Positions 18,770 to 48,085 of a DNA stretch of 64,000 bases are shown in pieces. A program made the translations under genes and the position numbers. The DNA is from a virus. The notes below the pieces were generated by a model. That model was not told the origin of the DNA and made no database searches. It worked only from the letters and a program-made list of their open reading frames with translations. The stretch is from the IMG/VR virus record IMGVR_UViG_3300028840_006907, positions 160,001-224,000 of that record, one strand, 5' to 3'. Numbering within the stretch: the first letter of the stretch is position 1; each line of letters begins with the position of its first letter.

Positions 18770-19723
18770 TTAGAAGCTCAGTACTCTCACCTGGCATGGT
18801 GCCTCCTTTTCAAGTTGATATAATTTGTGATATAACAATTTTTCTTTTTCAGAAATTATTGAAGGTATTTTTATTTTAATAATTGCTTTAAAGTCCCCGA
18901 CTTCTTTTTTGTATGTTATTCCTTTGTTTTTGAATTCTATTTTCTGCCCGTATTGTGTCCCAGGAGGGATTTTTATGTTCACAGTTTTTTTGAAAACTTT
19001 AAGATTAAACGAATCTCCAAGTATTGCTTGAATAGGGCTAATGGTTATTTTTCCAATAATATCAAGGCCATTTACATAGTATCTGGGATCTTCTTTAATA
19101 ATTAGACTTACAATTAAATCGCCAGGAGATCCCCCAGGAATACAATTGCCAAGTTTAGGTATTCTTATGATTTCTAAAAGTGGGTTAAGGGTTATTGTAT
19201 GCTGAATTATCTCAGGCTGGAGAGCAGTTCCATTACATATCTTACATTGATCTCCTTCAGGAATTCTTCCCATACCTTTGCAATATGTACATTTCTTTTT
19301 AGATCCTAGTATCAGTGATAATCCCTGTAAGCCAGTGCCATTACAGTATACACATTTTTTTAATAGCCTCTCTGCTGAACCTGTGCCCGAGCAATCTTTG
19401 CATGGCCCTTTTCTTTTAATTACAATTAATTTATTTATACTTTGAATTAGGTCCATTCTGGTCACGTTTATAGAGACTTTTAAATTGCTTCCTTGTTTGA
19501 AACTTCTTTTCTTTACGAATTGGTTGTCATATTTTTTTCTTTTATTCTCATCTTTTAAAACTTCATAGGCATCTGTGGCTTCTCTGAATTTTTCTTCAGC
19601 AATTTTATCATCAGGGTTTTTGTCAGGATGATACTTTATAGCCAACTTTCGATAAGCGACTTTAATCTCTATATCTGTAGCATCTTCTGGTATATTTAAG
19701 ATCTTATAATAGTTCTTATTCAT
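18770..19723 (-). CDS. dnaJ: DnaJ/Hsp40-type co-chaperone
   Basis: J domain with HPD motif (KYHPDKNP) and four CxxCxGxG zinc-finger repeats. Confidence 0.85.
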   Translation of the reverse strand: MNKNYYKILNIPEDATDIEIKVAYRKLAIKYHPDKNPDDKIAEEKFREATDAYEVLKDENKRKKYDNQFVKKRSFKQGSNLKVSINVTRMDLIQSINKLIVIKRKGPCKDCSGTGSAERLLKKCVYCNGTGLQGLSLILGSKKKCTYCKGMGRIPEGDQCKICNGTALQPEIIQHTITLNPLLEIIRIPKLGNCIPGGSPGDLIVSLIIKEDPRYYVNGLDIIGKITISPIQAILGDSFNLKVFKKTVNIKIPPGTQYGQKIEFKNKGITYKKEVGDFKAIIKIKIPSIISEKEKLLYHKLYQLEKEAPCQVRVLSF

Positions 19724-22312: not shown

Positions 22313-23010
22313 AATATTAATGCTCGATTCCTTTTTCCATCTCTTCGAGTAAATCGTAATAGTTAGGTATCTCTGCTAAATGATCAAGAGCTATTTTAAG
22401 AGCTATTTTTTTATGAATCGTTTCTTGAAAAGAACTGTCTTTTTTGATGTGCTCTTTTTCTACTTTTATCCCTTTTTTTAGTTGTTTCTTATCTACATCT
22501 TTTTCTGTTATTTTTTTTTCTGTAGCTAAACCATTCGACATAAAAGATACAAATGCTGAGGCTAATTTATAGATCTCTTTTTCGAAGTCATGTATATCAT
22601 AATTATTTTTTTCTGCAAAAGAATGCACTTGAGAGTCACTAGGATTAGGATTCTCTTTTAAAAATGAGAAGACATCTTCTTCTATATTTTTGGCTATTTT
22701 TCTGGTGCACAATAAGGCTGCTACTCTTAATATAGATGAGATATTTATTTGTGACATATTTATACTCCTTATTAGTTTTTAGAAGTAAGTAGAAATAAAT
22801 AGATTATTACAAATTCTTTTTAAGAGTTTTTTGATATGATTATATATAATTTGATTGAAAGAACTATCTTTTCTTTCCCACAATCACACTTACATTTCAA
22901 ATATATATGACGGTTTTTATCTCTTTTCTCAATTTTTAATACAGTTAATCTGCCAAATTTTTTATTGATTAAATTATCAGGTTTACCTATCATAATCGTT
23001 GGAAGGGTTT

Positions 23011-23538
23011 TTATAGATCGTGCATCTTTTTAAATTTATAAAGTCGGTATTCTGCAGATTTTTTTAATTTTTTTTCAATTTGTTCATATTCATTCAATAA
23101 TTCCTGAACTTTATTTGTAGTGAGATGGCCTCGGGCTATTTTCTTTTCAATCTCTTTCATTCTCTTCAAAGGTCGAGTTACTTTTCTGTACATATTATTT
23201 TGACCTTGCAGAGCAGATTGATTTTTTAACTTATGACAATTTTTACAATAGTATTTTTGTACTCTTGTAGCTAATTCGATGGGAGGGAGAAATAGTTTGC
23301 TACATCTTTTCTTACATTTAGGGCATTTAAAAAACCATCTATATCCTCCCAGATAATTCTCCATAGCTTCATATTCAAAAACCTGATCATTTACTGTGAA
23401 TTTATTTAATTCTTTTAAAGTTAAGTCATAGAATTCTTCCTGTGTGGATTCAGGATAGTCTCTATTAATAATCTTTTTTATAGTTTTTTGTAGAGTATTT
23501 ATGTCTACTGAACTACAATTTTCCACTGTGATTTGCAT
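23011..23538 (-). CDS. zinc-ribbon protein
   Basis: CPKCKK...CKNCHK. Confidence 0.3.
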   Translation of the reverse strand: MQITVENCSSVDINTLQKTIKKIINRDYPESTQEEFYDLTLKELNKFTVNDQVFEYEAMENYLGGYRWFFKCPKCKKRCSKLFLPPIELATRVQKYYCKNCHKLKNQSALQGQNNMYRKVTRPLKRMKEIEKKIARGHLTTNKVQELLNEYEQIEKKLKKSAEYRLYKFKKMHDL

Positions 23539-23693
23539 TTATAACTGTCCTTCTAGAGTAAAAAAGTGTTTAATATAGATAAAATATCAAAAGATTATTA
23601 AAGATGACTTATAGTATATATAAAATAAATTGTTGAATATGGTTTTTAATTGGGTATAAATCATATTCTTAATGCTTTTTATATAATTTTACT

Positions 23694-23996
23694 TTATCCA
23701 GAAGTTTTTTTGTTATCGAATATATGTTGAGCTTCCTTTGAAAATTTGAAAAAAGGAGCTTGATATGATGGTATATCTACTGTTTCTCCTGTACGAGGGT
23801 TTCTTCCTATACGTTTGTTTCTTCTTTTCACACTAAAAGCTCCAAAGCCTCTGATTTCAATTCTGTTTTCCCTTGATAGATTTTCTAATACCTGATCAAG
23901 AAACAGTTCGACGACGGATTTTACGTCATTTACCGGTCTACCAAGTTTTTGTGCTATTTGGTTGCATATATCTAATTTTGTGGTATTTTTACTCAT
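23694..23996 (-). CDS. HU/IHF family DNA-binding protein
   Basis: Signature RGFGAFSVKRRNKRIGRNPRTGETVDIP (beta-arm of bacterial histone-like proteins). Confidence 0.85.
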   Translation of the reverse strand: MSKNTTKLDICNQIAQKLGRPVNDVKSVVELFLDQVLENLSRENRIEIRGFGAFSVKRRNKRIGRNPRTGETVDIPSYQAPFFKFSKEAQHIFDNKKTSG

Positions 23997-24510
23997 GCTA
24001 AACTCTCCTTAAAGACCTTTTATTTTTTTGGTTTAAATAAATTTATGTGGTAAAAGAATTTCCATAACCAACCGATGAATGGGATATCTGTTACAGGTTT
24101 TTCTAAAACCCATTCTAGAGCACAGATATCAGGATATTCTTTTTCTTTATATTTTTTGTCATTTAATCTCTCTTCGAATAATTGTTGAAGATCTTTTTTT
24201 GTATACCTATATACGAAAGCATTACAATTTTGACAATGGTGTATCTCTTGGCATATATCCAATAGATGGGGTTCAATCTTAGCATTTTCAGGATTTGGTG
24301 GTGGCCATATAAATCTTCCTTTTGGTAGATTTGATTCTGGCTGGTGAAGAAAACAAAGATTTATTACGGTAGATATTTTACCCTTTTTTAGATAATAAGG
24401 GTAATTATATCTACAATTCTCAGGTACTCTTTTAAGAAATTTCTTATAAAGTTTTACTAGATGGTAATATTTTACCTCTCTTAATTTTTTCCAAATTTTT
24501 CCAGTACTTT

Positions 24511-25179
24511 TCATTTTGGTTCCCAATTAAGTCCAAAAACCTTTACTTTAGGTTTTTTGTAAAAGAAATTTTCATCTATGAAATAGATTTTGTCCGCATA
24601 CGACTCTAAAGAAGAGTTGTAGCATTTTTTAAAGCTCCATATTTCTATCTGTTTATTTTTACTCTTTAAATACCGGCATAGATCAGTGAAATTCCCGTCT
24701 CCAGACATTAATATCCATTTAGAGTAATGGTTTATTTTATCCAAACAATCAATCACTATTTCTACATCATTATATGATTCTTTGTATATGGGTATATTAT
24801 ATGTCTGTTCATTCTGGACTGGTTTATTATATCCTGTTGTGGGTCGATTCTGCCTTTTAATTCTTACATTTTGTTTTTTTGCCTTCATAGACTTATTGTA
24901 AACGGGTTCATTCTGGACTAACCGGTTATGCCCTATTAAGGTCCGGTTTTGTTTTTTTGCCCTTATAGTGTATCCTATGGAAGTCAGTTTGGATTCAAAT
25001 CTGCTACTATCAAAATCATTTCCTCTGAACATATAAATACTTGCACCAATAAGAAATTCGGTTTCTCGACTATTAAAATATTCCCACACTTTTTCAAAAT
25101 CGATCTTTTCTTCTTTGTTTTTCATTTCATAAAAGAGATTTTGAAGATCTATTTGTAGGAATGTCGTAAAATTTTTCAT
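24511..25179 (-). CDS. NYN/PIN-like domain protein (tentative)
   Basis: LQIDLQNLFY near N-terminus and WILMSGDGNFTDL block resemble NYN/LabA motifs. Confidence 0.35.
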   Translation of the reverse strand: MKNFTTFLQIDLQNLFYEMKNKEEKIDFEKVWEYFNSRETEFLIGASIYMFRGNDFDSSRFESKLTSIGYTIRAKKQNRTLIGHNRLVQNEPVYNKSMKAKKQNVRIKRQNRPTTGYNKPVQNEQTYNIPIYKESYNDVEIVIDCLDKINHYSKWILMSGDGNFTDLCRYLKSKNKQIEIWSFKKCYNSSLESYADKIYFIDENFFYKKPKVKVFGLNWEPK

Positions 25180-25781
25180 TTAATTTTCTCCATGATAAGA
25201 CCGTTTTTTGATTCCTTCACTTTATATACTCGGTCTGCATCGTGTTTAAATTCTTTTTGATGGGTTACAAGAAGTATATCTATACCTATCTTTTTTGAGA
25301 GTTCACTTATTAATTTTGCTGTGTTAGAAATGTAAAGTTCTCCGACTGGTGCAAAGGTCTCATCTAAAAGCATCAATCGTGCGAGATCTTTTTTTAGTAC
25401 ACTGAGAATACGCATAAGAAAACTTTCTATAACAGCTACACTTCCTCCAAAAGATTTGAAATCACCTTCAATATCTCCATCTAAAGTTTTTAATTCAATA
25501 TTTATTTTTCCTGCTTTTTCTTTTTTGTCAGGTAAAAAAGTTAAATTCTGATCATCAAAGACACTTTTAAGACCGTAAGTGATAAGAGCTGCCATTCGGG
25601 TTATTTCATTTTTAACCATAATATCTAAAAGATGTTTTAATACCACACTAGCTTTTGAATCCCTTTCGATGTTTATCTTAAGGGATTCAATAGTATCTTT
25701 TAGTGACTGCTCTTGATTTAATAACGCCTTATAGAACCCATCAATCTGATCTGTTTGTCGTTGTAAAGCAGTAATATCCAT
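25176..25781 (-). CDS. ABC-type ATPase C-terminal lobe (Rad50/SbcC-like signature, Walker B, H-loop)
   Basis: SFGGS (signature-like), LMLLDETF (Walker B), ILLVTHQ (H-loop) in 201 aa; no Walker A. Confidence 0.5.
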   Translation of the reverse strand: MDITALQRQTDQIDGFYKALLNQEQSLKDTIESLKINIERDSKASVVLKHLLDIMVKNEITRMAALITYGLKSVFDDQNLTFLPDKKEKAGKINIELKTLDGDIEGDFKSFGGSVAVIESFLMRILSVLKKDLARLMLLDETFAPVGELYISNTAKLISELSKKIGIDILLVTHQKEFKHDADRVYKVKESKNGLIMEKIK

Positions 25782-25783
25782 TT

Positions 25784-26938
25784 TTATACTTTCCTAGCTA
25801 GTGTTAATAAAGCTATCGCAGTAAAAGGTATTGTGATTGGATCTTTGTCTTTCTCTTCTATGATAATACTAGCTTCACTATAGATAGTGCATTTTCTCGC
25901 TTTTAAATAGAAATTGACATTTTTTGCCTGAAAGAGACTTAAAATGTTTTTAAATTTAGCACATTCTATAAGGAAATCAAGTTTATTATTTCCTGAAATT
26001 CTTTTACATTCCATATTTTCATATGAAGGTCGATCAGTCAAGGTTTTCATTTTAAGTATTTGATCTTCTCCGTAAGAAGAATCGATGGCTATATCTTCCC
26101 ATGAAGAAAGAGCTAAACGATTCAACTTTTTTGAGAAATCTGAACAGTTCACATTAAAACCGTCTGTGTCTGGGACTTCAGTGGTAATTGGTAATTTCGG
26201 TTTTCCCACAATTGATTGTCTAAAACCGAAATAATTAAGGTCGTCTTCTGAAGAAAATGTAATGTATTTTTCAGAAGATTTAATAGTGACTTCAGAAGAT
26301 TTTGTTTTATCAACAAAATTGATAATTGATGGAAGCATTGCTCTTCTTAAAGCCAGTTCCGGGATACTATTGAAATCATCACTCTTGAAAGCCCCTATTT
26401 TAGTATTACCATCTGATCCGTATAATGTACCTTCTTCAATAAACAGATTGGAGAACTTTTTATCCTTATCATCCTTAGGAAGAAAACCCTGGATAAATTT
26501 TACTCCTTTAAGAAAAACAACTGAATTGATTTTGCCCCTTAATTCTTGATTGGTTAAATCAAAATTAAGAAATTTTTCAGGTTCGAAAGAAGCAAAAGAA
26601 ATGTAAGCTTTTTTGTTATCAGATGCATACACATTCAGAGTTTTCTTTTCAGGGTCGTAGGAAAAAGAGATCTCTTCTGAATCTGAATTGTTAATAAGTA
26701 AAAGTATTCTTTTTGGATCTGCTGTAAATTCTGTTATATCCCCTTCAACAGATTTTAAAGGAAAATGAGATTGAGCAATTTTATCTTCGTCTGTGGCATA
26801 CAAAGAAACGTTTTCATTACTTTCATTAATTCTGAATAAAGTATGGCTACGGATGGTATTAGCCACATCACCCGTTGCCAGGGAGACTACTGATAGAGCA
26901 GTTTTTAATTCTTTAGTTGGAGCTGAAAAATTTATCAT
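25784..26938 (-). CDS. DNA polymerase sliding clamp (beta-clamp-like)
   Basis: 384 aa; N-terminal pattern (LYATDEDKIAQSHFPL ... FEPEKFLNF) and overall length match DnaN-type clamps. Confidence 0.6.
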   Translation of the reverse strand: MINFSAPTKELKTALSVVSLATGDVANTIRSHTLFRINESNENVSLYATDEDKIAQSHFPLKSVEGDITEFTADPKRILLLINNSDSEEISFSYDPEKKTLNVYASDNKKAYISFASFEPEKFLNFDLTNQELRGKINSVVFLKGVKFIQGFLPKDDKDKKFSNLFIEEGTLYGSDGNTKIGAFKSDDFNSIPELALRRAMLPSIINFVDKTKSSEVTIKSSEKYITFSSEDDLNYFGFRQSIVGKPKLPITTEVPDTDGFNVNCSDFSKKLNRLALSSWEDIAIDSSYGEDQILKMKTLTDRPSYENMECKRISGNNKLDFLIECAKFKNILSLFQAKNVNFYLKARKCTIYSEASIIIEEKDKDPITIPFTAIALLTLARKV

Positions 26939-26941
26939 TTT

Positions 26942-27202
26942 TTATACCTCTATTAAGTTAAGTTTTTGTTTAGTTTCTTCTACTTCTTTTTCCAGATCTG
27001 TCAATAATTTCTGTAATTCATTTTCTTTCTCTTCTCTGATACTGGATAATTTTTTCGGATCATAACCTTTCTTTTTTATCTCCTTGAGGAGCTTTTCAAG
27101 ATTAATTTTTTCATTATTAAATCTCTCCTCCAGGCGGATTTTCTGATTAGAGATAGTATTCACATCTTCTTTGATTTTTTGATATCTTTCTGTTTCATTC
27201 AT
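26942..27202 (-). CDS. small coiled-coil protein
   Basis: 86 aa, heptad-like K/E-rich. Confidence 0.3.
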   Translation of the reverse strand: MNETERYQKIKEDVNTISNQKIRLEERFNNEKINLEKLLKEIKKKGYDPKKLSSIREEKENELQKLLTDLEKEVEETKQKLNLIEV

Positions 27203-27217
27203 AACATTTACCTCATT

Positions 27218-28060
27218 TTAATCGAGACCGAATTCGATAACTTCACCATCGCTCTCTAGGTTTTCTATTTTAGAAGGTTTTGCCCGAGAAGCCTTATCTT
27301 TAAGACCCTCAAGACATTCGTTTGCATAGTTACAATATTTACAGGATTTGGAACTAGGTGTAGGAAGATATTTCTCTGTATTAACAATCTCTTTAATATC
27401 CAAAGATAGATTTGCTCTGAATTCGTTTAATAATTCCTGATCAATTGCTACAGGAATAAGAGTGTTAAAACGGTAATAGAAAAATCCTAGTTCCATTGGT
27501 AATCTTTTAAATTGGAAATAGTAAAGTAAAGCATAAAATAGGAGTTGATTATTATCAATATTTTTACCTATTTTAGTAGTCCCTTTTCCATCAAAGATAG
27601 ATTCTTCTGTTGTTTTTATAGGATTTTTATGTATAAAATCTAACCTTCCTTTTAAAATTAGAGAATTTTTTAATGTTACTTCTATCTGTATTTCTGACCG
27701 TGTATTAAGAAAATAATTTCTATTCGTTGATTCCATGATATGGCATACATCAGAATAAGCTGATGCTAGGATCTCCTCTTTAGACTCTTTACAGAAAAAT
27801 GCAGTCCAGTCAACGAGGCTATTTCTTAAAATCATTTTGTATAAAGTAATTAGTTTTTCTCTTATTTCTGAAGAAGTCAAGATAGGGTTGGTTTTACACC
27901 AAATATTACAATATAATTCAAAGAATTTTTCTACCAGTCTTCCATACAAAGTGAAATACTCATTAATAGGTACAGTAGGAGGATCTTCCTTTACATATTG
28001 TTTATAGAATTTTTTAGGGCATTCTTTAAATGCCTTCCAGGATTTAAAGGTTATGTTCAT
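27218..28060 (-). CDS. PD-(D/E)XK nuclease with Cys cluster (Cas4/RecB-nuclease-like)
   Basis: GRLDFI ... DGKGT ... QLLFYALLYY core and N-terminal Cys plus C-terminal CKYCNYANEC, as in Fe-S-containing Cas4/AddB nuclease domains. Confidence 0.55.
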   Translation of the reverse strand: MNITFKSWKAFKECPKKFYKQYVKEDPPTVPINEYFTLYGRLVEKFFELYCNIWCKTNPILTSSEIREKLITLYKMILRNSLVDWTAFFCKESKEEILASAYSDVCHIMESTNRNYFLNTRSEIQIEVTLKNSLILKGRLDFIHKNPIKTTEESIFDGKGTTKIGKNIDNNQLLFYALLYYFQFKRLPMELGFFYYRFNTLIPVAIDQELLNEFRANLSLDIKEIVNTEKYLPTPSSKSCKYCNYANECLEGLKDKASRAKPSKIENLESDGEVIEFGLD

Positions 28061-29031
28061 TTAGAAGCCTCCTGGATAAAATAAAGCACTCTTTTCCGGA
28101 CAGCTTCAACCATATCCATTTTGTCTATCATATCATCAATTGTTTGGGATTTATCAGATGAATCAACTACAGCTTCAGTAGCTAATTTTTCCACAAATAA
28201 TTTTATTTCTTCTTTTTCCTGTTGTTCCTGTTTTTTCTTTTCAAGATCAAAAACCTCACTTGCAGGTTGAATTCTTAATCTTATAGGACGTACTAAATAC
28301 GATGGCTCACCGTTTTCTACCTGGATTTTTATGAAACCTATCTGAGGGTGATGGTCTATATCATCTTCTGATATAGCCCCGCGACTCATTGAGCCTATAT
28401 TTATAAAATATTTCCCGTTCTGTTTATAGATACCCTGGTCTATGTGATAATGCCCTATAACGAAAATGTCAGATGGGAGTTCACCTATCTCATCATACCC
28501 ATAAATTTTATTCTTAAAAAGCATAGTACTTTTTAAACCAGCATAAATGTGGAGAGCACATATCTGTGTAATACAATCACCTTTATCAGGTAGATTTAAA
28601 TTTGATAAATCAATATCTTCTGTAAATGGAATTCCTACAAGAGATATTTTCACATTATCCTTTTCAATTATCTCATGACGAAGTTGAATAAGGGTACCAT
28701 CAGCAAATAACACTCCCAGCGGTTGTTCAGAGATACTTTCCAATCGATCTGCTGAAAGATCATGATTTCCTTCTATCATATAGATGGGACAGGAAAATTT
28801 TTGAAATATTTTTATGAGTTCCCTGTTTAAGTTGTGGCTGTTTTTTGCCGGATTCTTAAGATTAAAAAGATCCCCTGCTATAATAGCAGCATCAGCATTT
28901 AATTTTCTACATGCCATGCCCATTTGGTCTATTTTATCAAGCATGGTTTTTTTAAAATCATCTGTCCTTGATCTGGGACCGTTATCACTAATATGGATAT
29001 CATTCGCTGTTATAATTGTAAATTCAGTCAT
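28057..29031 (-). CDS. sbcD: Mre11/SbcD-type calcineurin-like phosphoesterase nuclease
   Basis: Motifs ANDIHIS, GDLFN, EGNHD, GHYH. Confidence 0.8.
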   Translation of the reverse strand: MTEFTIITANDIHISDNGPRSRTDDFKKTMLDKIDQMGMACRKLNADAAIIAGDLFNLKNPAKNSHNLNRELIKIFQKFSCPIYMIEGNHDLSADRLESISEQPLGVLFADGTLIQLRHEIIEKDNVKISLVGIPFTEDIDLSNLNLPDKGDCITQICALHIYAGLKSTMLFKNKIYGYDEIGELPSDIFVIGHYHIDQGIYKQNGKYFINIGSMSRGAISEDDIDHHPQIGFIKIQVENGEPSYLVRPIRLRIQPASEVFDLEKKKQEQQEKEEIKLFVEKLATEAVVDSSDKSQTIDDMIDKMDMVEAVRKRVLYFIQEASK

Positions 29032-30329
29032 AATGGCCTCTCACATAAAGGGCATACTTTAATTTCGTTCTTTTCTTTTTGTGCTTTTTCAAGCTCAGAG
29101 GTAGTTTTCTTTAAATCATCCCTTGTGGTTTTCAGGGATTTAACTAGTGCAAGAAATTCAATTTCTATGCTTTGCATATTTGTTAAATCTTTTAGCTTTA
29201 ATGAAACCTTATTTATAGCTTTTTGGATTTGATCGAAATTTAGAGATTGTAAAACATTCTTTTGTTTTCGTATGTTTTCAGAAGTAGTGATTAAAGAATC
29301 ATCCCATTTTTTAAGGGATAATACTTCATTTAGAGATAATTCTGTATCTTCAATTTTAGGTATCTTTATTTTTGATATACTTTTTAATTTGTTAACTATT
29401 GACGTTAATACTTTATACTTTTCACTCTTTTCTTGAATCCATTCAAATTCATCTAATATTTCTTTACCTTTGGTTTCATTAGGAATACTTATTTCGGGAA
29501 TGCTTTTTAATTTTTCTATGACCTCTATTGATTTTTTATATTTGCTATCTGTTTCTTGAAGCCATGGTAATTCAGATATAACTTTTTTACATTTAGAACT
29601 ATCAGGTATCTCGATATCTTTTATGGATTTAAGACGTTGTAATATGTCAGTGAGGGATTTTAACTGTCCTTCTAAATATCTGATGGTATGGATTTCTTCT
29701 TGAAGTTCTTTTGCCTTTTTATCTTTTTCAGCAAGTAATTTTACTGTTTCTTTTATTGTTTTGAAATCCTTATATTTCTCAAGATCAATTTGAAGTGCTT
29801 TGAGATCAGCTTCCCTGGTTTTTAATAACGATTTATCAGCTTTAATTGCTTTTTGGCATAAACTATCTGCAGTACTGAGAGTATCGATTTGATATAGATT
29901 TGCTAAAACCTCTGTGACGACAGGACCAGGTTTATTGATAAGAAAAAGAGGATCGAATTGAGATGCTATTAATGGTGATATCTTTTGATCCCCTATTACC
30001 ATTTTTCGAAATCCTGCCTTTGTTATAGGTTCGGGAATAGTTCCTTTTAATTTTGTAAACGGTTCATCATAACCTTTGATTTTATAAGAAGCTGTACTTT
30101 TTGTTTTTTCCCATTCAAAATTAAGGTCTTTATAATCGACAATGACTCTAGCTTTTTTCTTACCTTTCTTTATGAAACCACTTCCGGTCTGGTTATTTAA
30201 AGCTGCATCAATTGCTCTTATAATAGCACTTTTCCCAATATTGTTCTTACCAATAACAACAGTGAATCCTTCAATATCGAAATCAACTTTATTTATACTC
30301 TGGAAATTTTCAATTGATATTTTAGTCAT
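29028..30329 (-). CDS. sbcC: Rad50/SbcC-like ATPase N-terminal lobe plus coiled coil ending in a CxxC hook
   Basis: Walker A GKNNIGKS after FTVVIGKN, long coiled coil, protein terminates ...KVCPLCERPL. Confidence 0.6.
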   Translation of the reverse strand: MTKISIENFQSINKVDFDIEGFTVVIGKNNIGKSAIIRAIDAALNNQTGSGFIKKGKKKARVIVDYKDLNFEWEKTKSTASYKIKGYDEPFTKLKGTIPEPITKAGFRKMVIGDQKISPLIASQFDPLFLINKPGPVVTEVLANLYQIDTLSTADSLCQKAIKADKSLLKTREADLKALQIDLEKYKDFKTIKETVKLLAEKDKKAKELQEEIHTIRYLEGQLKSLTDILQRLKSIKDIEIPDSSKCKKVISELPWLQETDSKYKKSIEVIEKLKSIPEISIPNETKGKEILDEFEWIQEKSEKYKVLTSIVNKLKSISKIKIPKIEDTELSLNEVLSLKKWDDSLITTSENIRKQKNVLQSLNFDQIQKAINKVSLKLKDLTNMQSIEIEFLALVKSLKTTRDDLKKTTSELEKAQKEKNEIKVCPLCERPL

Positions 30330-31538
30330 TTATTTTCTCTTTTTCTTTTCTTTTTCTTTTTTAACAAAACTATCTGCTACATTTTCCATTAAAGAATCAA
30401 AATCATCACCTTCATTTTCTGTATTCTGATATATTTCTTGAATCTCATTATCCTGATTGATTGTGAGACAGTCCTGAACTTTTTTAAATGCATCCATATC
30501 AGTATTAAGTTTTTTCCATAACTGCTCTTTTCCCTGTACTTTGAAAATGAGTTCCTTATTTAATGTAAAGCTATAAAAGGAACCTCCTTTAACAATGACT
30601 TTTGAATTAATTGCCAATTCCATAATAGATTTGATATTATCGAAGCCAATTCCAAAACGAATGTAAACTGGAGCAGATTTGTAAGGTTTATCGATTTTAT
30701 TTTTTACAACAGAAGCTTTAATAGTTACATTGGTAGGTTCCTTATCTTTTTTACCTGTTAATTTACTTGTAACATCAATTTTTTCTACAATACTTCTTTT
30801 TAGTGATATTCGAACAGATGAATAAAATTTCAATGCCCTACCACCACTAGATTCTTCATCTGGACCTGTCTCATATTTGCTCTTTTTAATAACAGTTCTT
30901 AACTGATTGGTAAAAAGAAGATTTGTATTACTGGCTTTAAGAAATTTGGTAATATAATTCAAAAATACAGACATTAATTGTGCTTGCAATCCAATACGAG
31001 CTGATTCATCAATATCTCCTTGAAGAAATTCTTTTGGAATCATGGCAGAGACACTATCAACAGCAATGATATAAGGTTTCATCATAAGCATATCGAATAT
31101 TTGTCTGGCTCCTTGCTGAAAATAATTTGGTTGAACTAGTATAAATTTATCCGGACTGAGGTCTACCCCTATTTTCTGGGCATAGTCAGGATGGAATGTT
31201 TGTTCAAAATCAACTAGGATACCAACACTACCTAATTCTTGAGCACATTTAATAGCACTTAAAACAAAGGTTGTTTTACCAGAAGATTCATCACCAAATA
31301 TTTCAACGATATGACCTCGGGGAAGTCCTCCCGGTTTACCTGTCATAGTACCGTCCCCGATAAGTGAATCGATTATCCAAGAACCGGTAGGGACGAAATC
31401 AATAGCTTGTCTATTTTTTAAATTGACAATAGTATGTGCATCTTCTTTATTTACTTTTCTTAGATACTCTTGAGCGCTTAGTGGCTTCTTGGCCTTTTTC
31501 AAATATTCTTCCGCTGTGAAGGCTTTCTTTTCCGCCAT
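30330..31538 (-). CDS. recA: RecA-family recombinase
   Basis: Walker A GDESSGKTT and conserved RecA core with extended C-terminus. Confidence 0.9.
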   Translation of the reverse strand: MAEKKAFTAEEYLKKAKKPLSAQEYLRKVNKEDAHTIVNLKNRQAIDFVPTGSWIIDSLIGDGTMTGKPGGLPRGHIVEIFGDESSGKTTFVLSAIKCAQELGSVGILVDFEQTFHPDYAQKIGVDLSPDKFILVQPNYFQQGARQIFDMLMMKPYIIAVDSVSAMIPKEFLQGDIDESARIGLQAQLMSVFLNYITKFLKASNTNLLFTNQLRTVIKKSKYETGPDEESSGGRALKFYSSVRISLKRSIVEKIDVTSKLTGKKDKEPTNVTIKASVVKNKIDKPYKSAPVYIRFGIGFDNIKSIMELAINSKVIVKGGSFYSFTLNKELIFKVQGKEQLWKKLNTDMDAFKKVQDCLTINQDNEIQEIYQNTENEGDDFDSLMENVADSFVKKEKEKKKRK

Positions 31539-32214: not shown

Positions 32215-32269
32215 ATAAATAAACCTCTCTGTGCCAATGTGAATTGGCACAGGGTGTTTTAAAAGATTA

Positions 32270-38488: not shown

Positions 38489-38805
38489 TATTCTCCCTCG
38501 TCGTTATCGGTGTCATCATCATCTATATCAATTAAGATGTAACTGAATTGATCAAGTGTTTGTAAAGAGTGCCCAATTAATTTTGTTATATAATCTAAAA
38601 GTTTTTCCTTTAAAGGATCTTCCGATTTAAGAATGGTATAAGAATCTAGTGATTTACCAAATACATCGGATATAGATTTCAGTTTAAACTTCACAGCATC
38701 TAAAACCTGAAGTAAAGAATCGTTGTTCTGTTGGTCACTATTAAGTTTTTCCATATACTCCTTAAATTTATCATCCCCATATTCAGGGTCATTATTATTA
38801 CTCAT
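38488..38805 (-). CDS. small acidic protein
   Basis: 105 aa, ends in DDDDTDNDEGE. Confidence 0.3.
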   Translation of the reverse strand: MSNNNDPEYGDDKFKEYMEKLNSDQQNNDSLLQVLDAVKFKLKSISDVFGKSLDSYTILKSEDPLKEKLLDYITKLIGHSLQTLDQFSYILIDIDDDDTDNDEGE

Positions 38806-39086
38806 TTTTGTCTATTCCTTTAAAATTGATAGAAGCTATCCTATATAATGATATGGAACTAACAAGGGTTTTCGATAAGTAAAAAATAAAAAAAGTTTTT
38901 AAGTCTAATGGTTTGAGTAAGTTACAAGAGGTAATTTTAGGTTTAAAAAAACCATGTTTTTTGATAAGAATATATAATATAGAGTATAAATAATCCTGTT
39001 TTTATGATTTACTAAAAAAGTAATTAATATAAATAGCTATATGAATATGTATATATGAATATAGTTATTTATTTTTTCCTGAATAA

Positions 39087-39149
39087 GGAAAAGTAAAATA
39101 AAAAAGAACAGAAAAATAGTAGTAGAAGAAGAGAGGAATGAGGATTAAA
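39087..39149. repeat. 63-bp direct repeat, copy 1
   Basis: Identical to 40188..40250. Confidence 0.9.
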
Positions 39150-39395
39150 AAAGATATAGATGATATAAAAAGAACCAATATAATGAATTTAATAGTAAAA
39201 ATAAAAATTTAAGTCACCAATATAATGAATAAACTTATGAACAAAGTAAAAATATAACCTATAAAATCTTCAAAAAAAGTTAAATCATAACCTTATTTAT
39301 TCGAACCAGTTATAACAAAAAAAATAAAACCTTAAAAATTTTACTTATCACTTTACCTTTCTAACTTTGTATAAATAGTAGGAGGTAAATTTGAA

Positions 39396-39770
39396 ATGAA
39401 CACAATTTTTATCACAGGTTTGGATAAAATCTCTATTAAAAGATTCATCCAATTTATTCTAAAATACTTAAATGATTACCAAGTTGGTACACTTCATTAC
39501 TTAATGAGTGAAGAGAGCATAAACTATTACATCGAAGATTTTTCAAATAAATTTCAAAAAAGGATCTTCTCTTACTTCTTAAGGAAATCAGGAGATTCTA
39601 TACCCAATCTTCCTACTTCAATAACTGATAGTGCTGATCTTATCATATGGTTTGATTTATACAGTACTAAACCAATAGTTAAACAGAGTAAGACAGAACC
39701 GCATATTCTTAAAGGGGCTCTTATGGATTGGGCAAGACACATAGAGAAATTAGAGAAAGGGGGATTGTAG
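39396..39770 (+). CDS. hypothetical protein
   Basis: 124-aa ORF with AGGAGG SD; lies between the 63-bp repeats. Confidence 0.35.
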   Translation: MNTIFITGLDKISIKRFIQFILKYLNDYQVGTLHYLMSEESINYYIEDFSNKFQKRIFSYFLRKSGDSIPNLPTSITDSADLIIWFDLYSTKPIVKQSKTEPHILKGALMDWARHIEKLEKGGL

Positions 39771-40160
39771 AAAGCCAGTTTGAGGAGGATATTAGGGCTC
39801 AACCCTGTTTGAGGACCACCGGGGCACACGAGGCCGTTGTAACGATGTAAGTCGGTAGTGCCGTGTCATTTAGGAGTTCGATCCAGGGGGATAGATCGTG
39901 CCATGACTCCTGTCAGTATACCGTCATAGGTAAAACCGAGTTACTCAAGATATATTATACCGGTCTGAAGGGTTCATCAAACATGAGAAGTTTACATGGG
40001 TACAAGCCGTTTCTAAGAGTACCTCAAAATTGAATTTTAGCTGTTTTAGGAAACAAAGCCTTACTATGCATGTAGTAAGCGAAATGTCGCAGGCTCGTGC
40101 CTCGCTAGTGACCCAGCGGGGATGGTGAAGACAGAAAGGTGCATTAAAATTGAGTAATAG
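39771..40160. ncRNA. candidate structured RNA of unknown class (GC-rich, hairpin-rich non-coding segment)
   Basis: Local GC well above flanks, several perfect short hairpins (e.g. cttacta-tgcatg-tagtaag), no convincing ORF. Confidence 0.3.
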
Positions 40161-40187
40161 ATGTATCAATAAATAAAAAAATCAATA

Positions 40188-40250
40188 GGAAAAGTAAAAT
40201 AAAAAAGAACAGAAAAATAGTAGTAGAAGAAGAGAGGAATGAGGATTAAA
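40188..40250. repeat. 63-bp direct repeat, copy 2
   Basis: Identical to 39087..39149, spacing 1101 bp. Confidence 0.9.
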
Positions 40251-40376
40251 TAGTGAATTAAATCAATGAGTTACAGTGAGTGCTACTGTGTAATTTAAAG
40301 CGGATTTAAATTTAAAATTAGTACTAAAAAATACAGTATAGTCTAAAAATAAAGGACTATTTATTAGGAATAAATT

Positions 40377-40559
40377 ATGTGTAATGGTTTATCTATTAAG
40401 GAAGATTTACCTAAAGTTGATATCCATGTTGAGTGTGACTGTGGAGAAGAATTAGACATCGATTTACATGGATGGAGTCTGTCTGTGTACGGTGGACTAG
40501 TATTTAAATGCCCTTCCTGTGAGTCAGAAATAAAGACCTATATGGTAGAGAGTGTGTGA
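40377..40559 (+). CDS. small zinc-ribbon protein
   Basis: CDCG...CPSC. Confidence 0.3.
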   Translation: MCNGLSIKEDLPKVDIHVECDCGEELDIDLHGWSLSVYGGLVFKCPSCESEIKTYMVESV

Positions 40560-44002: not shown

Positions 44003-47000
44003 ATGGAGATCGAGATGCTATCACCTTTTGGGAAAATTGTCTGGGAAGATCGATACGCGCTGAAGGATGAATATGGGAAATTAATTGAAAAAAATATTTT
44101 AGAAACATTTCGTAGAGTTGCTACAGCTATTGCTTCTAAGGAAAAAGACTCTAAGTTTTGGGGTGACAAATTTTATAAGATTATGGCAGACCAATCTTTC
44201 TGTCCAGCCGGTAGAGTCCTAGCCCATTCAGGTACACATTATTCTCAACTTCTCAATTGTTTTGTTCTCCCATTCCAGGATGACAGTCTGGAAGAGATTA
44301 TGAACACTGGTAAAAACATGGCTATTGTTCAAAAATATGGTGGGGGCTGTATTGGAGGTGAGAGTAATATTCTTACTAATAAAGGTGTTGTACCATTAAA
44401 AGAAATTGTTGAAGGAAATGATAAAGATCTTAAAGTACTATCTTTTAATTCTGATAATAATGAGATGGAATACTGTGATATTTTAGAAAGACATACAAAT
44501 AATTTATCTGGGGATCGTGTATTCGAAATTGAGTTCGATAATACAAAAGGCGGTGTTGCATCAAGAATAAGAGCTAGCGATTGGCATCCCTTTTTTGTTT
44601 TTGATGGAGTAAAGATAATCCAAGTACGTGCTGATGAGTTAAAACCTGGGATGGCTGTAATAGGCTCAACTGATTTAGGGGTAAATTTAAAGTATGATTC
44701 TATGGGTTGGTTATTAGGTTATATTGCTGGTGACGGTTCGATTGATACTAATAATGGGGAAGATGTACGTGTTAGGGTAGTAGATGACAGTGAAGAGTGT
44801 GTTAAACGTGCAGCAGGAATATTTAATACATCTTATAAACCTTCTAGTGATAAACGTTATAAAGTAAAAATGTGGGCTTGTGAGGTTTATGGAGATGAAG
44901 CTGGGATGGTAAAGGATGAGTTTGGGGGGTATCAAACTAGTGGTACAAAACATGTCCCGAATTCTATCTGGGAAAGTTCTCCTGAAAGAAGACTTTCTTT
45001 TTTAGTTGGGCATATTGATGCAGATGGCTGGTTTAATAAAGAGAAAAAAAGATTTGAAGTTTTTACTGTTAGTAATGAATTGGCAAAAGAATTAATAGCC
45101 TTAGCTGGTGGTCTTGGTATTCGGGCTTCACTACGTTTTAGAAAATCACGTAAAGAAAATGAGCAAGATGGTTGGGAAGTTAGGTATAGTAGCTCTCAAT
45201 TTTCGATTGATTTAATTGTTAATATTAGTGCAAAACATAACCCACTCAATGCTGGATGGGTTATGGGTACTATAAATTTATCTCATGAATGGAAAGATCA
45301 TTTAAAAAGCGTAGGTATTAATGTTTATACAAATAAAGCATGGAGAAAGTCAATTGAAATTGATGGTGTAAAAAGATCATTAGTTTATTGGTTACAGCAT
45401 GGTAAAGCTTCAAGAGAAACTGCTGCTTCTATTCTTAGAGTGTGTGGTGAAGAAAAGATAGCAAGTGCTGTTTTATCTAGCCAAATAGTACTCTCTTCAA
45501 AGGCTACAGGAATTTCAGAAACATTATATGATCTCACTATTGCAAAAAATCAAACATATATGGCATCAGACCCAACTACAGGGGCTTATGTTGTTGTGCA
45601 TAATACAGGATTTAATTTCAGTAGGCTCAGACCATCAGGTTCATATATAAAAGGTGTCAATGGTCGTAGTAGTGGACCCATCGGATTTATTAGCATGATG
45701 TCAACTATCTCAGAAATAATTGAACAAGGCGGGACCCGCAGGGGCGCGTCAATAGGGCTTCTTGAGGCATGGCACCCTGATTTATGGGAGTTTGTTTCTT
45801 ATAAAACTGAACATAATTGGGAATGTCTTCGAGAATTTATTGATGTGAATGATTACGATAAATGGGAATCATTTAAATATGAAAATTTATATAAATGGCA
45901 AATGTTCAATGTCTCTGTAGGAATTACTGATGATTTCTTAGAATCTGTTAAAAACAATAAGGAATGGGTATTTAATTGGAAAGGGGAAGAGTGGGAACTT
46001 TATACCGTTATTTTTAAGAAATATATAAGTGAAGGTAATTACAAAGAATTAACATTTGAAGTTACAGCTAACAATGATCCTACTGCTATATGGAAAGTAA
46101 GAAAGAAAATACCTTATCCTACTGGTAGTGATATATTTGAAGTTACATCAAAAAGAAAAGTAAAAGCTTCCGAGATCTGGGATAGACTGTGTTATAATGC
46201 CTGGGCTGATGGATGTCCGGGCATTATCAATTTAAGTACTGCTCGTAGGATGCATAATTTAGAATATGCCTTCCCTATAGAAGCTACTAATCCTTGTTTT
46301 ACTGGAGATTGTAAATTGGATACTATCAATGGTCCTATGACTTTTGAAAGTCTTGAGGATAAAGAAATTGATCTTAAAACTCCATATGGTTCTATTGAAA
46401 AAGGTAGAATTTGGAAAACAGGGGTAAAATCTACTATCAGATTAAAATTTAATGATGGTAGTTCAATAACGGTTACTCCCGATCAACTATTTTTGTGTCA
46501 TAAAGGAAAAGAGATACGGGCTAAGGATTGTTTAAATAAATGTTTAAATACTTCGGATATACCGTTAAGTGTAGTTTCAATAGAGGATAATGGTGAACAA
46601 GAGGTCTATGATTTTTCAATCCCATGTAATTGGGGTATAGTTAATGGAATAGTGGCTCATAATTGTGGGGAGCAACCTTTAGGGGGATTTAGTTCTTGCA
46701 ATTTGTCAAGCATACTCCTTCCTAATTTTGTTATAGAGGATACCAAATCAGTTGATTGGGATAAACTTAAAGAGGTTGTTCATACTGCTGTCAGATTTTC
46801 GGATAATGTTGTAGATAATTGTGAATTTCCGATTCCGGAAATTAAAGATAAAGCATATCAGGAAAGACGTGTCGGACTAGGTACTATGGGAGTTCATGAC
46901 ATGTTAATCAAAATGGGACTAGATTATGATAGTGATGTGGGTCGTGATGCTGTGGAAGAGGTATTAAGATTTATTCGGGATGAAGCTTATAAAGCATCAA

Positions 47001-48085
47001 TTAAAATTGCGGAAGAGAAGGGGTCTTTTCCAGCCTTTAAAAAGAAAGAAATTTTAAAGAGTGGGTTTATAAAAACACTTCCACCAGAGATCGTAAAATT
47101 GATTGGGAAAAATGGTATTAGAAATAGTGCCCTTTTATCCCAGGCACCCACAGGATCGATCTCAGCGTTAAATAACGTTTCATCTGGGTGTGAACCATGG
47201 TATTCATTATCCTTCCAAAGAAACACTCGTTTGGGTTCCTATGAAGATGGTTGTCCAACTTATATTGAATGGAAGAAAAATAACCCCGAAGCTCCCATAC
47301 CATCCTATTTTAAAACAGCTCCAGAAATAAGCCCTACAGATCACGTAAAAATGCTTATTCTTTTTAGTAAATACATTGATTCAGCGGTGAGTAAGACAGT
47401 TAATCTCCCAAATCATACAACAGTAGATACAGTTAAAGAGACATTTATTTATGCTATGGAAAATGGTGTAAAAGGTCTGACTGTTTTTCGGGATGGTTCT
47501 AAAGAAGGTGTTTTAGTAAATAAACAAAACAAGAAAAAAATTGAAGAAATAATTCCATATACAGATAAAGAAGATTGTTATGAAAATGTAATGTCTCCTA
47601 AAAAGCGGGGAGATAAAACAACTGGTTCAACATATCGTATTCATATGCAAAGTCATAATTTATATGTTACAGTTAATCGAAATAGAGATGGTGATTTAGT
47701 AGAGCTTTTTACTACAGTTGGAGAGAGTAAAAAACCTAATGCACATCATACTAGTGGTGTTGAAGATTCCTGGGCAGAGGGTCTTGGTAAAATAATTAGT
47801 CTAGCTCTGCGTGCAGGAGTGAAACCTAGTTCAATAATTCGGAATTTAAAAAATATTCCATCAGATAAACCAGTATTTGTTACTATCGGTGATAATGAAA
47901 ATTCTGAGCATATACCTTCTCCACCTCATGCTATTGCTAGGGTAATAGAAGATGAGATGAGTAATGGTGAAGAAGAAATTAATATTCAAGGAGGTTATTG
48001 CTCAGAATGTGGCTCAACAAATACTAAAAAGAAGAGTCCCACTTGTTACGAGTGTTTTGACTGTGGCTACGTAGCTTGTGGTTAA
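44003..48085 (+). CDS. nrdJ: class II (adenosylcobalamin-type) ribonucleotide reductase interrupted by two inteins
   Basis: Extein motifs QKYGGG|TGFNFSRLRPSG, GGTRRGA, TNP|CGEQPLGG; C-terminal Cys cluster; 1360 aa before splicing, about 818 aa after. Confidence 0.85.
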   Translation: MEIEMLSPFGKIVWEDRYALKDEYGKLIEKNILETFRRVATAIASKEKDSKFWGDKFYKIMADQSFCPAGRVLAHSGTHYSQLLNCFVLPFQDDSLEEIMNTGKNMAIVQKYGGGCIGGESNILTNKGVVPLKEIVEGNDKDLKVLSFNSDNNEMEYCDILERHTNNLSGDRVFEIEFDNTKGGVASRIRASDWHPFFVFDGVKIIQVRADELKPGMAVIGSTDLGVNLKYDSMGWLLGYIAGDGSIDTNNGEDVRVRVVDDSEECVKRAAGIFNTSYKPSSDKRYKVKMWACEVYGDEAGMVKDEFGGYQTSGTKHVPNSIWESSPERRLSFLVGHIDADGWFNKEKKRFEVFTVSNELAKELIALAGGLGIRASLRFRKSRKENEQDGWEVRYSSSQFSIDLIVNISAKHNPLNAGWVMGTINLSHEWKDHLKSVGINVYTNKAWRKSIEIDGVKRSLVYWLQHGKASRETAASILRVCGEEKIASAVLSSQIVLSSKATGISETLYDLTIAKNQTYMASDPTTGAYVVVHNTGFNFSRLRPSGSYIKGVNGRSSGPIGFISMMSTISEIIEQGGTRRGASIGLLEAWHPDLWEFVSYKTEHNWECLREFIDVNDYDKWESFKYENLYKWQMFNVSVGITDDFLESVKNNKEWVFNWKGEEWELYTVIFKKYISEGNYKELTFEVTANNDPTAIWKVRKKIPYPTGSDIFEVTSKRKVKASEIWDRLCYNAWADGCPGIINLSTARRMHNLEYAFPIEATNPCFTGDCKLDTINGPMTFESLEDKEIDLKTPYGSIEKGRIWKTGVKSTIRLKFNDGSSITVTPDQLFLCHKGKEIRAKDCLNKCLNTSDIPLSVVSIEDNGEQEVYDFSIPCNWGIVNGIVAHNCGEQPLGGFSSCNLSSILLPNFVIEDTKSVDWDKLKEVVHTAVRFSDNVVDNCEFPIPEIKDKAYQERRVGLGTMGVHDMLIKMGLDYDSDVGRDAVEEVLRFIRDEAYKASIKIAEEKGSFPAFKKKEILKSGFIKTLPPEIVKLIGKNGIRNSALLSQAPTGSISALNNVSSGCEPWYSLSFQRNTRLGSYEDGCPTYIEWKKNNPEAPIPSYFKTAPEISPTDHVKMLILFSKYIDSAVSKTVNLPNHTTVDTVKETFIYAMENGVKGLTVFRDGSKEGVLVNKQNKKKIEEIIPYTDKEDCYENVMSPKKRGDKTTGSTYRIHMQSHNLYVTVNRNRDGDLVELFTTVGESKKPNAHHTSGVEDSWAEGLGKIISLALRAGVKPSSIIRNLKNIPSDKPVFVTIGDNENSEHIPSPPHAIARVIEDEMSNGEEEINIQGGYCSECGSTNTKKKSPTCYECFDCGYVACG
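44348..45604 (+). mobile_element. intein 1 (419 aa) with LAGLIDADG homing-endonuclease domain
   Basis: Starts with Cys after QKYGGG, ends VVHN before Thr; two LAGLIDADG motifs (LGYIAGDGSID, LVGHIDADGWF). Confidence 0.8.
46295..46663 (+). mobile_element. intein 2 (123-aa mini-intein, no endonuclease domain)
   Basis: Inserted between TNP and CGEQ of the active-site motif; starts CFTGD, ends VAHN before Cys. Confidence 0.75.

Follow-up and report, generated by a model that had tools for sequence, protein, structure and literature searches.

Rad50/SbcC ATPases work together with the Mre11/SbcD nuclease, as in E. coli SbcCD, phage T4 gp46/gp47 and the archaeal complexes, and have a bipartite ABC (ATP-binding cassette) head and an arm ending in a CPxC motif. 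Mre11 usually docks at the base of the Rad50 coiled coil, and how this coil and its zinc hook control the head is a long-standing question that has so far been approached with engineered truncations. Rad50 and SMC heads are routinely reconstituted, and have been crystallised, from N and C fragments that were expressed separately. In such engineered two-chain domains (1F2T/1F2U, 1II8, 3QKR A/B; 3KTA, 1XEW), separate N and C segments form one ATPase domain, and we propose the same for a natural system encoded by a virus. The DNA analysed here, referred to as the window, is a stretch of 64,000 nucleotides from the IMG/VR virus record IMGVR_UViG_3300028840_006907 (positions 160,001 to 224,000; G+C of about 32%), in which lobe I and lobe II of Rad50/SbcC lie on separate genes of one operon, whose products we call the N-half and the C-half. 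On the sequence comparisons presented below, it is probable that this Rad50/SbcC is made from separately encoded polypeptides that assemble non-covalently in trans. The engineered two-chain heads are laboratory truncations without arm or hook, whereas the phage two-chain state is natural and conserved, with the arm and the CxxC on one chain.

Like canonical Rad50/SbcC, the locus encodes a bipartite ABC head and an arm that terminates in CPxC, and its operon, part of a recombination module, also holds the Mre11 nuclease gene next door. The locus differs from the canonical form in several respects: the chain comes to an end only a few residues past the CxxC, hardly anything is left of the return strand beyond a stub of about 40 aa on the C-half, the arm carries tandem 43-aa units and proline breaks, the serine of the signature motif is not conserved, and a small helical hairpin protein of 86 aa (hereafter the hairpin) is genetically linked to the system. 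An earlier note on this DNA, made from the sequence alone, had given the coordinates of the open reading frames (ORFs) of both halves and had named Mre11/SbcD, a Cas4-like nuclease, the 86-aa ORF and the sliding clamp as the genes lying between the two halves. All of its coordinates and all four of these genes were confirmed, on the minus strand, which carries every feature of the window described below unless stated otherwise. The N-half, the C-half and the hairpin also occur, with identical sequences, on a contig of 469,617 bp, so the source is a huge phage.

The N-half gene (29028-30329; 433 aa) encodes lobe I, a helical arm and a C-terminal CPLC. It had been described as a Walker A N-lobe that stops right after a CPLC hook-like motif, and this description is borne out: the protein ends in KVCPLCERPL, with four residues between the CPLC (29043-29054) and the stop codon. 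C426, P427 and C429 are invariant in 50 aligned N-halves (down to 24% identity), where they lie 2-20 residues from the end, and a CxxC is found within 25 aa of the C-terminus in all 35 distinct N-halves from related loci. At the other end of the protein, G27, G32, K33 and S34 of the Walker A motif, or P-loop (GKNNIGKS, residues 27-34; 30228-30251), are invariant in the 50 homologues, and the Q-loop residue Q124 (29958-29960) is nearly invariant (at least 90%) in the homologue alignment. The N-half matches AAA_15, SMC_N and AAA_23 in Pfam, and PHROG families 16465 and 77, labelled "SbcC-like". In an alignment to the NCBIfam model of archaeal Rad50 (PRK03918), residues 158-433 correspond to profile positions 191-445 of 878, so that the chain stops near the midpoint of the Rad50 profile, at the place of the archaeal hook cysteines (C444 and C447 in P. 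furiosus Rad50). The best PDB match found by Foldseek for an AlphaFold2 (AF2) model of the N-half (mean pLDDT, the per-residue confidence score, of 82.6) was Rad50 3auy (27% identity over 112 columns of the head), followed by SMC, RecN and RecF heads. TM-scores to relatives were uninformative (about 0.3, with large root-mean-square deviations), and a profile search against PDB sequences, swamped by coiled-coil and leucine-rich-repeat-like noise, is taken as supporting evidence only. Altogether, the N-half has the Walker A, the Q-loop and the SMC/Rad50 fold of a Rad50/SbcC lobe I.

Two other identities were considered for this protein and rejected. An SMC protein proper would carry a hinge domain, and neither Pfam nor the AF2 model reveals one in the N-half, whose arm ends in CPxC instead; the linked partner is Mre11 and not a kleisin. 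RecN and RecF have similar heads, but they are single chains with a short coil (RecN) or none at all (RecF) and have neither a CxxC hook nor a Mre11 partner; an arm of 290 aa, a CPxC at its end and the coupling or fusion to Mre11 point away from them.

Lobe II is encoded 3.2 kb away, beyond four complete and conserved genes, by the separate 201-aa C-half ORF (25176-25781), and the signature, Walker B and H-loop attributed to it earlier are upheld by motif coordinates and conservation. The C-half starts with one long helix (residues 3-74), the variable part of which (about 3-44) forms the coil stub of about 40 aa, and continues with lobe II. G112 and G113 of the variant signature motif FGGS (residues 111-114; 25440-25451) are nearly invariant in 53 diverse C-halves, as is the H-loop residue H174 (25260-25262), and D140 and E141 of the Walker B motif LMLLDE (residues 136-141; 25359-25376) are the sole invariant columns in these sequences (20-53% identity). 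The C-half thus has the signature motif, Walker B, D-loop and H-loop of a Rad50/SbcC lobe II, and its Pfam SMC_N match covers profile positions 150-218 of 220. Separately expressed two-chain Rad50/SMC heads (1f2t A/B, 3qkr A/B, 1ii8 A/B, 3kta) are the best sequence and fold matches of the window halves. The two motif sets are complementary and each is strongly constrained, and neither half would be able to hydrolyse ATP alone, which argues for one composite ATPase.

The split is a family trait. A search covering 5.8 billion proteins returned about 100 relatives of the N-half (345-491 aa), all of which end in CxxC and none of which has lobe II in canonical order. A profile of the C-half matched 2979 clusters built at 50% identity (E ≤ 1e-3), 1150 of which reach E ≤ 1e-10; the top 150 clusters are all 116-313 aa long, and none of them has lobe I in canonical order. 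The usual Rad50/SbcC architecture, with both lobes in one chain connected by a long intramolecular antiparallel coiled coil, is therefore not what is found here. Across 92 loci, the genes hardly depart from the order RecA, N-half, Mre11, Cas4, hairpin, clamp, C-half, NYN, and each of the seven complete genomes examined has both halves, as separate genes. A scan of one genome per species for 185,579 prokaryotic species, made with a narrow C-half alignment, found the clade on a single 10-kb contig of a metagenome-assembled genome, and this near-absence from prokaryotic genomes indicates that the clade lives in phages. The split is ancient and is present in phages of at least four bacterial phyla.

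The earlier note had asked whether related genomes keep the split or have an intact single sbcC, in which case an assembly or rearrangement artefact would be suspected. The split recurs, an intact single sbcC was found in no relative, and misassembly is excluded by dozens of independent contigs and by cultured phage genomes. A separate N-half gene lies 2.3-6.5 kb upstream of the C-half gene in 36 of the 37 independent metagenomic loci with at least 8 kb of upstream sequence, which come from many samples; the layout is also seen in finished genomes of cultured phages, and the motifs are conserved down to 20-24% identity. An assembly error or a decaying pseudogene, rejected on this recurrence, has virtually no chance of being the explanation.

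One chain could in principle still arise from the two halves, through a split intein, ribosomal bypass or a recoded stop codon, either while they are translated or afterwards. Stop codons are sometimes recoded in huge phages, and the window does carry an intein-containing ribonucleotide reductase. However, only the residues ERPL follow the CPLC, and neither half has intein blocks or intein Pfam domains. The C-half begins with a long helix, the intervening genes are complete and conserved, and the stop codon of the N-half overlaps the start codon of Mre11. In addition, TAA and TGA both end ORFs of homologue-matching length, and the halves lie 108 kb apart in one phage, Tunturi_5. We rejected split intein, readthrough and recoding on the ERPL tail, the lack of intein domains and the stop/start overlap, and consider any such joining extremely improbable.

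Individual phages illustrate how the separate genes of the favoured split Rad50 are arranged. The uncultured phage LR745208 (485 kb) has the N-half, the hairpin and the C-half in the same gene order as the window. In Tunturiibacter phage Tunturi_5 (308 kb), the N-half (gp181, 485 aa) is directly followed by a 97-aa hairpin look-alike (gp180), and the C-half (gp14) is found 108 kb away, near the clamp gene. Microbacterium phage Magritte encodes the N-half as gp155 and the C-half as gp2, roughly 93 kb apart in the linear record, and no hairpin was identified in it. Microcystis phage Mvi-JY20 has both halves together with a 94-aa coil without significant match to the hairpin, and its Mre11 gene lies between the N-half and this coil. 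The Bacillus cereus prophage phBC6A51 encodes an N-half of 518 aa that ends in CPLC (BC1852, annotated as "SbcC"), a hairpin of 77 aa (BC1854), a C-half annotated as "chromosome segregation ATPase" (BC1855) and SbcD (BC1857). Bacillus phage vB_BboS-125 has the N-half (gp32), an AP2/HNH-like gene (gp33), the hairpin (gp34) and the C-half (gp35). Finally, Bacillus phage 0305phi8-36 (locus L093, 3978-8014) has an N-half fused to Mre11 (gp8), a hairpin with the same GYDPK turn (gp7, E 1e-14) and a C-half (gp5, E 3e-16).

Some of these loci hold further genes. A 326-aa Mre11/SbcD ORF of vB_BboS-125 (locus L012, 7854-8834; about 22423-23403 of the record) lies just downstream of the C-half, in a 1-kb stretch without RefSeq coding sequence. 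The same phage has gp33 (L012, 6014-6586), an endonuclease-like gene that matches AP2 and HNH_3 weakly, precisely where the N-half gene gives way to the hairpin gene, and in phBC6A51 an unrelated 100-aa ORF occupies this place; this hints that the N-half/hairpin junction is an insertion hot spot. In 0305phi8-36, gp6 (238 aa), for which no family was detected, lies between gp7 and gp5.

Natural fusions connect the two pieces to each other. Fifteen protein clusters of 349-747 aa (P0220-P0235 except P0222; two are truncated entries), which surfaced as weak matches in the N-half search, consist of circularly permuted single chains. Residues ~5-208 of these chains match the C-half profile (E ~1e-33), a linker of 20-28 residues follows, and next comes a match to the N-half profile from profile position 3-5 onwards (E 1e-18 to 1e-28). 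Chains of full length (613-747 aa) end in PCxxCxxLG[FY]. A fusion of C-half to N-half makes sense only if both form one head, and it thereby links the two pieces. As the permuted chains still end at the CxxC, the break at this motif is a retained structural feature and not an incidental cut. Genes for permuted proteins were located at L098 (8001-10217), L099 (5862-7847) and L100 (3880-5721). The first two of these loci lie on contigs that have a G+C of 22-26% and very large ORFs; in the third, the permuted gene directly follows a Mre11 gene, itself preceded by a 77-aa helical hairpin ORF.

The fusions bear directly on the alternative that the C-half is the lobe of a different ABC ATPase, or acts alone, and that the N-half is a truncated scaffold without ATPase activity. 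Such an arrangement would fit the large distances between the halves in Tunturi_5 and in the linear Magritte record, as well as the weak matches of the C-half to Rad50 among PDB sequences (E ~0.01, with nucleotide-binding domains of transporters at similar E-values). But the locus has no other lobe I that lacks a lobe II, the Walker A and Q-loop of the N-half are still invariant, the halves stay together in all seven complete genomes examined, and the 15 clusters of C-half-then-N-half fusions largely refute it; we consider it very improbable. The earlier note had offered two readings, trans-assembly of a naturally split Rad50 and membership of the C-lobe in another ABC ATPase; the first is favoured by the lack of an intact sbcC in relatives, the co-occurrence of the halves, the permuted fusions and a fusion to Mre11.

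This last fusion, and the operon itself, tie the split Rad50 to its nuclease. The Mre11/SbcD gene of the window (28057-29031; 324 aa; Pfam Metallophos, NCBIfam SbcD and Mre11 models) overlaps the N-half gene by an ATGA, which suggests that their translation may be coupled. The pairing is kept in related loci, a Mre11 gene lies just upstream of the permuted gene mentioned above, and in gp8 of 0305phi8-36 Mre11 is fused to the N-half, with Metallophos and AAA_23 matches both above Pfam thresholds. This protein also belongs to the described set of Mre11-Rad50 fusions, which includes Mimivirus R555 and its relatives, in which Mre11 is followed by Rad50 lobe I (PMC3175470); most members of the split family, unlike these, are not fused to Mre11. 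Yoshida, Claverie and Ogata reported that the 0305phi8-36 fusion is without one SbcC P-loop segment and that the phage has no other homologue, without locating the absent piece (Yoshida et al., 2011; PMC3175470). The ATPase segment noted as missing in 2011 can now be placed in gp5, three genes downstream of gp8, and gp7 is a homologue of the hairpin.

The halves might also assemble into a complex that is no classical break-processing Mre11-Rad50 nuclease but has a different SMC-like task; it could, for example, hold genome ends or concatemers together, organise replication compartments or counter host defence. The atypical arm, with its proline breaks and variable number of units, would agree with such a task, as would the variant signature motif, the tight linkage with Cas4, the clamp, the NYN nuclease and the HU-like protein, and the resemblance of the P-loop region of the N-half to OLD, Gabija and retron ATPases as well. 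Against it stand the ATGA overlap with Mre11 in the window, the Mre11 fusion in 0305phi8-36, and the position of the N-half inside a module with RuvC and RecA/UvsX. Moreover, 0305phi8-36 encodes only this version of SbcCD (Yoshida et al., PMC3175470), which must then cover the usual role in that phage. We judge a different task to be unlikely.

For the split Rad50/SbcC acting with Mre11, the arm of the N-half is the least canonical part. The earlier note had described a long coiled coil; a long helical arm is indeed present, but it is interrupted by proline-containing breaks and built in part from tandem units, each about 43 aa long and present in varying numbers. The helical region extends from about residue 135 to 422, giving an arm of about 290 residues, and the AF2 model has six helices in it (135-184, 189-234, 244-275, 285-316, 328-362 and 365-422). 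The tandem units span residues 230-360 (29250-29642), each consisting of an I-x-I-P break and a helix of 32-35 aa; units 1 and 2 align with a z-score of 12.9, and the model has one helix per unit. N-half homologues with 2, 3 or 4 units are about 390, 433 and 478 aa long. The arm is comparable in length to the outgoing strand of archaeal Rad50, and the return strand is missing.

A number of observations weigh against reading the two proteins as an otherwise ordinary Rad50. Set against the C-half stub (about 40 aa) and the hairpin (86 aa), an arm of about 290 residues is left for the most part without a canonical antiparallel partner. The length of the N-half (363-482 aa) is uncorrelated with that of the C-half (about 201 aa; r = 0.11) and with that of the hairpin (about 86 aa; r = -0.21), and the arm varies by single 43-aa units while C-half and hairpin lengths remain constant. 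The serine of the canonical signature LSGG(E/Q), needed in P. furiosus Rad50, is not conserved in the C-halves. The match of the Pfam Rad50_zn_hook model to residues 406-433 of the N-half is below threshold (E 1e-3; 19.3 versus 24.3 bits), and the fold comparison cannot separate Rad50 from SMC. Given the lack of correlation in length, residue-for-residue pairing with the C-half or the hairpin is excluded for the variable part of the arm; this leaves an arm that is folded back on itself, paired with a second N-half or decorated with several copies of a partner.

The hairpin is a candidate for such a partner. The earlier note had tentatively counted the 86-aa ORF (26942-27202, between the Cas4-like and clamp genes) among the members of the system; conserved linkage is the one observation that speaks for its membership. 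The protein consists of two helices, each about 36-40 aa long, with a G-[YF]-[DN]-P turn between them (G-Y-D-P in the window copy), in which P49 is invariant and G46 nearly invariant in an alignment of 19 sequences. Database searches gave 155 matches, and the 120 listed are all 78-103 aa long. Its gene lies between N-half and C-half in every lineage with a homologue or look-alike, usually just upstream of the C-half. Homologues were identified by profile in 0305phi8-36 (gp7), vB_BboS-125 (gp34), phBC6A51 (BC1854) and LR745208, whereas gp180 of Tunturi_5 is a look-alike by shared architecture, its profile match not being significant (E 0.055).

The hairpin also resembles GapR/UPF0335 (PF10073), a small DNA-clamping nucleoid protein, in its size (about 80-90 aa), its long first helix and a G-[YF]-D-x-K-x-L turn, a likeness that covers helix 1 and the turn only. 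GapR_DNA-bd (PF10073) is matched by 17 of 31 hairpin family members at E ≤ 1 (best E 4e-6), and seven GapR chains appeared in a PDB profile search over helix 1 and the turn (E 0.003-0.1); the window protein itself has no match to PF10073 at E ≤ 1. The family is mostly acidic (median pI 5.2; pI 6.4 and a net charge of 0 for the window copy). Homology to GapR is thus weakly suggested by sequence and undercut by this acidic composition.

We consider that the hairpin is probably a further subunit or an accessory factor, and a candidate third subunit; it might conceivably also be a leftover of the return coil. A Rad50 of at least three subunits, in which the arm is not an intramolecular antiparallel coil, the N-half by itself carries all of the outgoing arm and the zinc hook, the return strand has been lost and the hairpin binds the arm in trans, is possible, though we would not favour it. 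One may speculate, from matching helix lengths only, that a hairpin completes a three-helix bundle with each arm unit, the number of hairpin copies following the number of units. If a three-subunit Rad50 of this kind were to exist, the hook and the head would communicate without a covalently continuous two-stranded coil.

From domain content, conserved catalytic residues, the conserved split, co-occurrence, operon linkage and the fusions, all observed, we infer physical assembly of the halves, zinc binding and nuclease activity for the split Rad50/SbcC, which could work as follows. Walker A and Q-loop would come with lobe I from the N-half, which would also contribute the outgoing helical arm and, at its end, the CPxC. 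Lobe II of the C-half, with signature, Walker B and H-loop, would dock on lobe I to give a composite ABC head, and the C-half helix (about residues 3-44) would pack antiparallel on the first arm helix of the N-half, rebuilding the base of the coiled coil and with it the docking site of Mre11. ATP, sandwiched between two composite heads, would drive them together over DNA; with a Mre11 dimer they would form a DNA-end-processing nuclease for recombination-dependent phage replication, and two CPxC ends sharing one zinc ion would tether two complexes.

The surrounding genes are tightly packed. An unidentified 209-aa ORF at the upstream end of the run, where Tunturi_5 has an SSB gene, is followed by RuvC and by RecA/UvsX (30330-31538), members of the recombination module in which the N-half lies; the N-half gene starts directly after the RecA stop codon, with a gap of 0. 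The longest RuvC ORF, with a GTG start at 32250, overlaps the start of RecA by 92 nt (31447-31538), and RuvC homologues are 192-263 aa long. Three junctions have ATGA overlaps (N-half/Mre11, Mre11/Cas4 and C-half/NYN), and the clamp gene is flanked by gaps of 2-3 nt. This packing and the overlapping starts and stops make the genes one operon.

The Cas4-like PD-(D/E)XK nuclease (27218-28060; Pfam PDDEXK_1 and Cas_Cas4) has four cluster cysteines, Cys14 and C240-x2-C243-x5-C249; it is a conserved operon member that keeps its position in related loci, and nothing marks it as a subunit of Rad50. The sliding clamp (25784-26938; 384 aa) matches PHROG 947, "DNA polymerase processivity factor" (E 5e-10). 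Loci L007 and L089, like the Bacillus and Microcystis phages, have no clamp homologue in the interval from the hairpin gene (or the place where it would be expected) to the C-half gene, and the clamp is probably outside the Rad50 system. Directly downstream of the C-half lies the gene of an NYN-domain protein (24511-25179), followed by those of an HU-like protein (23694-23996) and two conserved unknowns. These four genes (23011-25179; NYN protein, 168-aa unknown, HU-like protein and 175-aa Cys-rich unknown) trail the C-half in almost every related locus, which indicates that the conserved module reaches beyond Rad50.

Elsewhere, the window encodes a RecD2-like helicase, an NAD-dependent ligase and a clamp loader. 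The ribonucleotide reductase large subunit (1360 aa; 44003-48085, plus strand) carries, at about residues 124-534, an intein that includes a LAGLIDADG homing endonuclease. On the minus strand lie genes for a flotillin/SPFH protein of 621 aa (4344-6209) and for a full DnaJ with J domain, CXXCXGXG zinc finger and C-terminal domain (18770-19723). At about 38800-40550, gene orientation and GC skew both flip, with minus-strand genes on the left and plus-strand genes on the right of a sparsely coding gap, which may represent a region of divergent promoters or an origin of replication.

Phages are known for genes in pieces, essential genes that inserted mobile DNA has split and whose products reassemble, such as Aeh1 nrdA, split by mobE, and the T4 topoisomerase genes 39 and 60. 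The split Rad50 resembles these in that an enzyme usually made as one chain is encoded by two genes with others between them, and vB_BboS-125 has an endonuclease-like gene at the junction. It differs from them in that the intervening genes are mostly replication and repair genes of cellular type rather than homing endonucleases, and in that permuted re-fusions exist.

We found no published split, bipartite or permuted Rad50/SbcC in the literature searched, although an earlier mention in a classification of ABC ATPases is possible (Krishnan et al., 2020). The reviews of jumbo phages that we consulted treat SbcC as a single protein, and PHROGs already has both halves as separate families, labelled "exonuclease" and "ATPase". 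Our results correct the annotation of these proteins, whose current labels are "exonuclease", "ATPase", "chromosome segregation ATPase" and "hypothetical protein". A large natural family that is cut at the hook, with its return strand nearly absent, provides a natural test of the need for a continuous arm. The permuted and Mre11-fused forms, and the culturable Bacillus, Microbacterium, Microcystis and Tunturiibacter phages, offer tractable proteins with which to test which covalent connections Rad50 needs.

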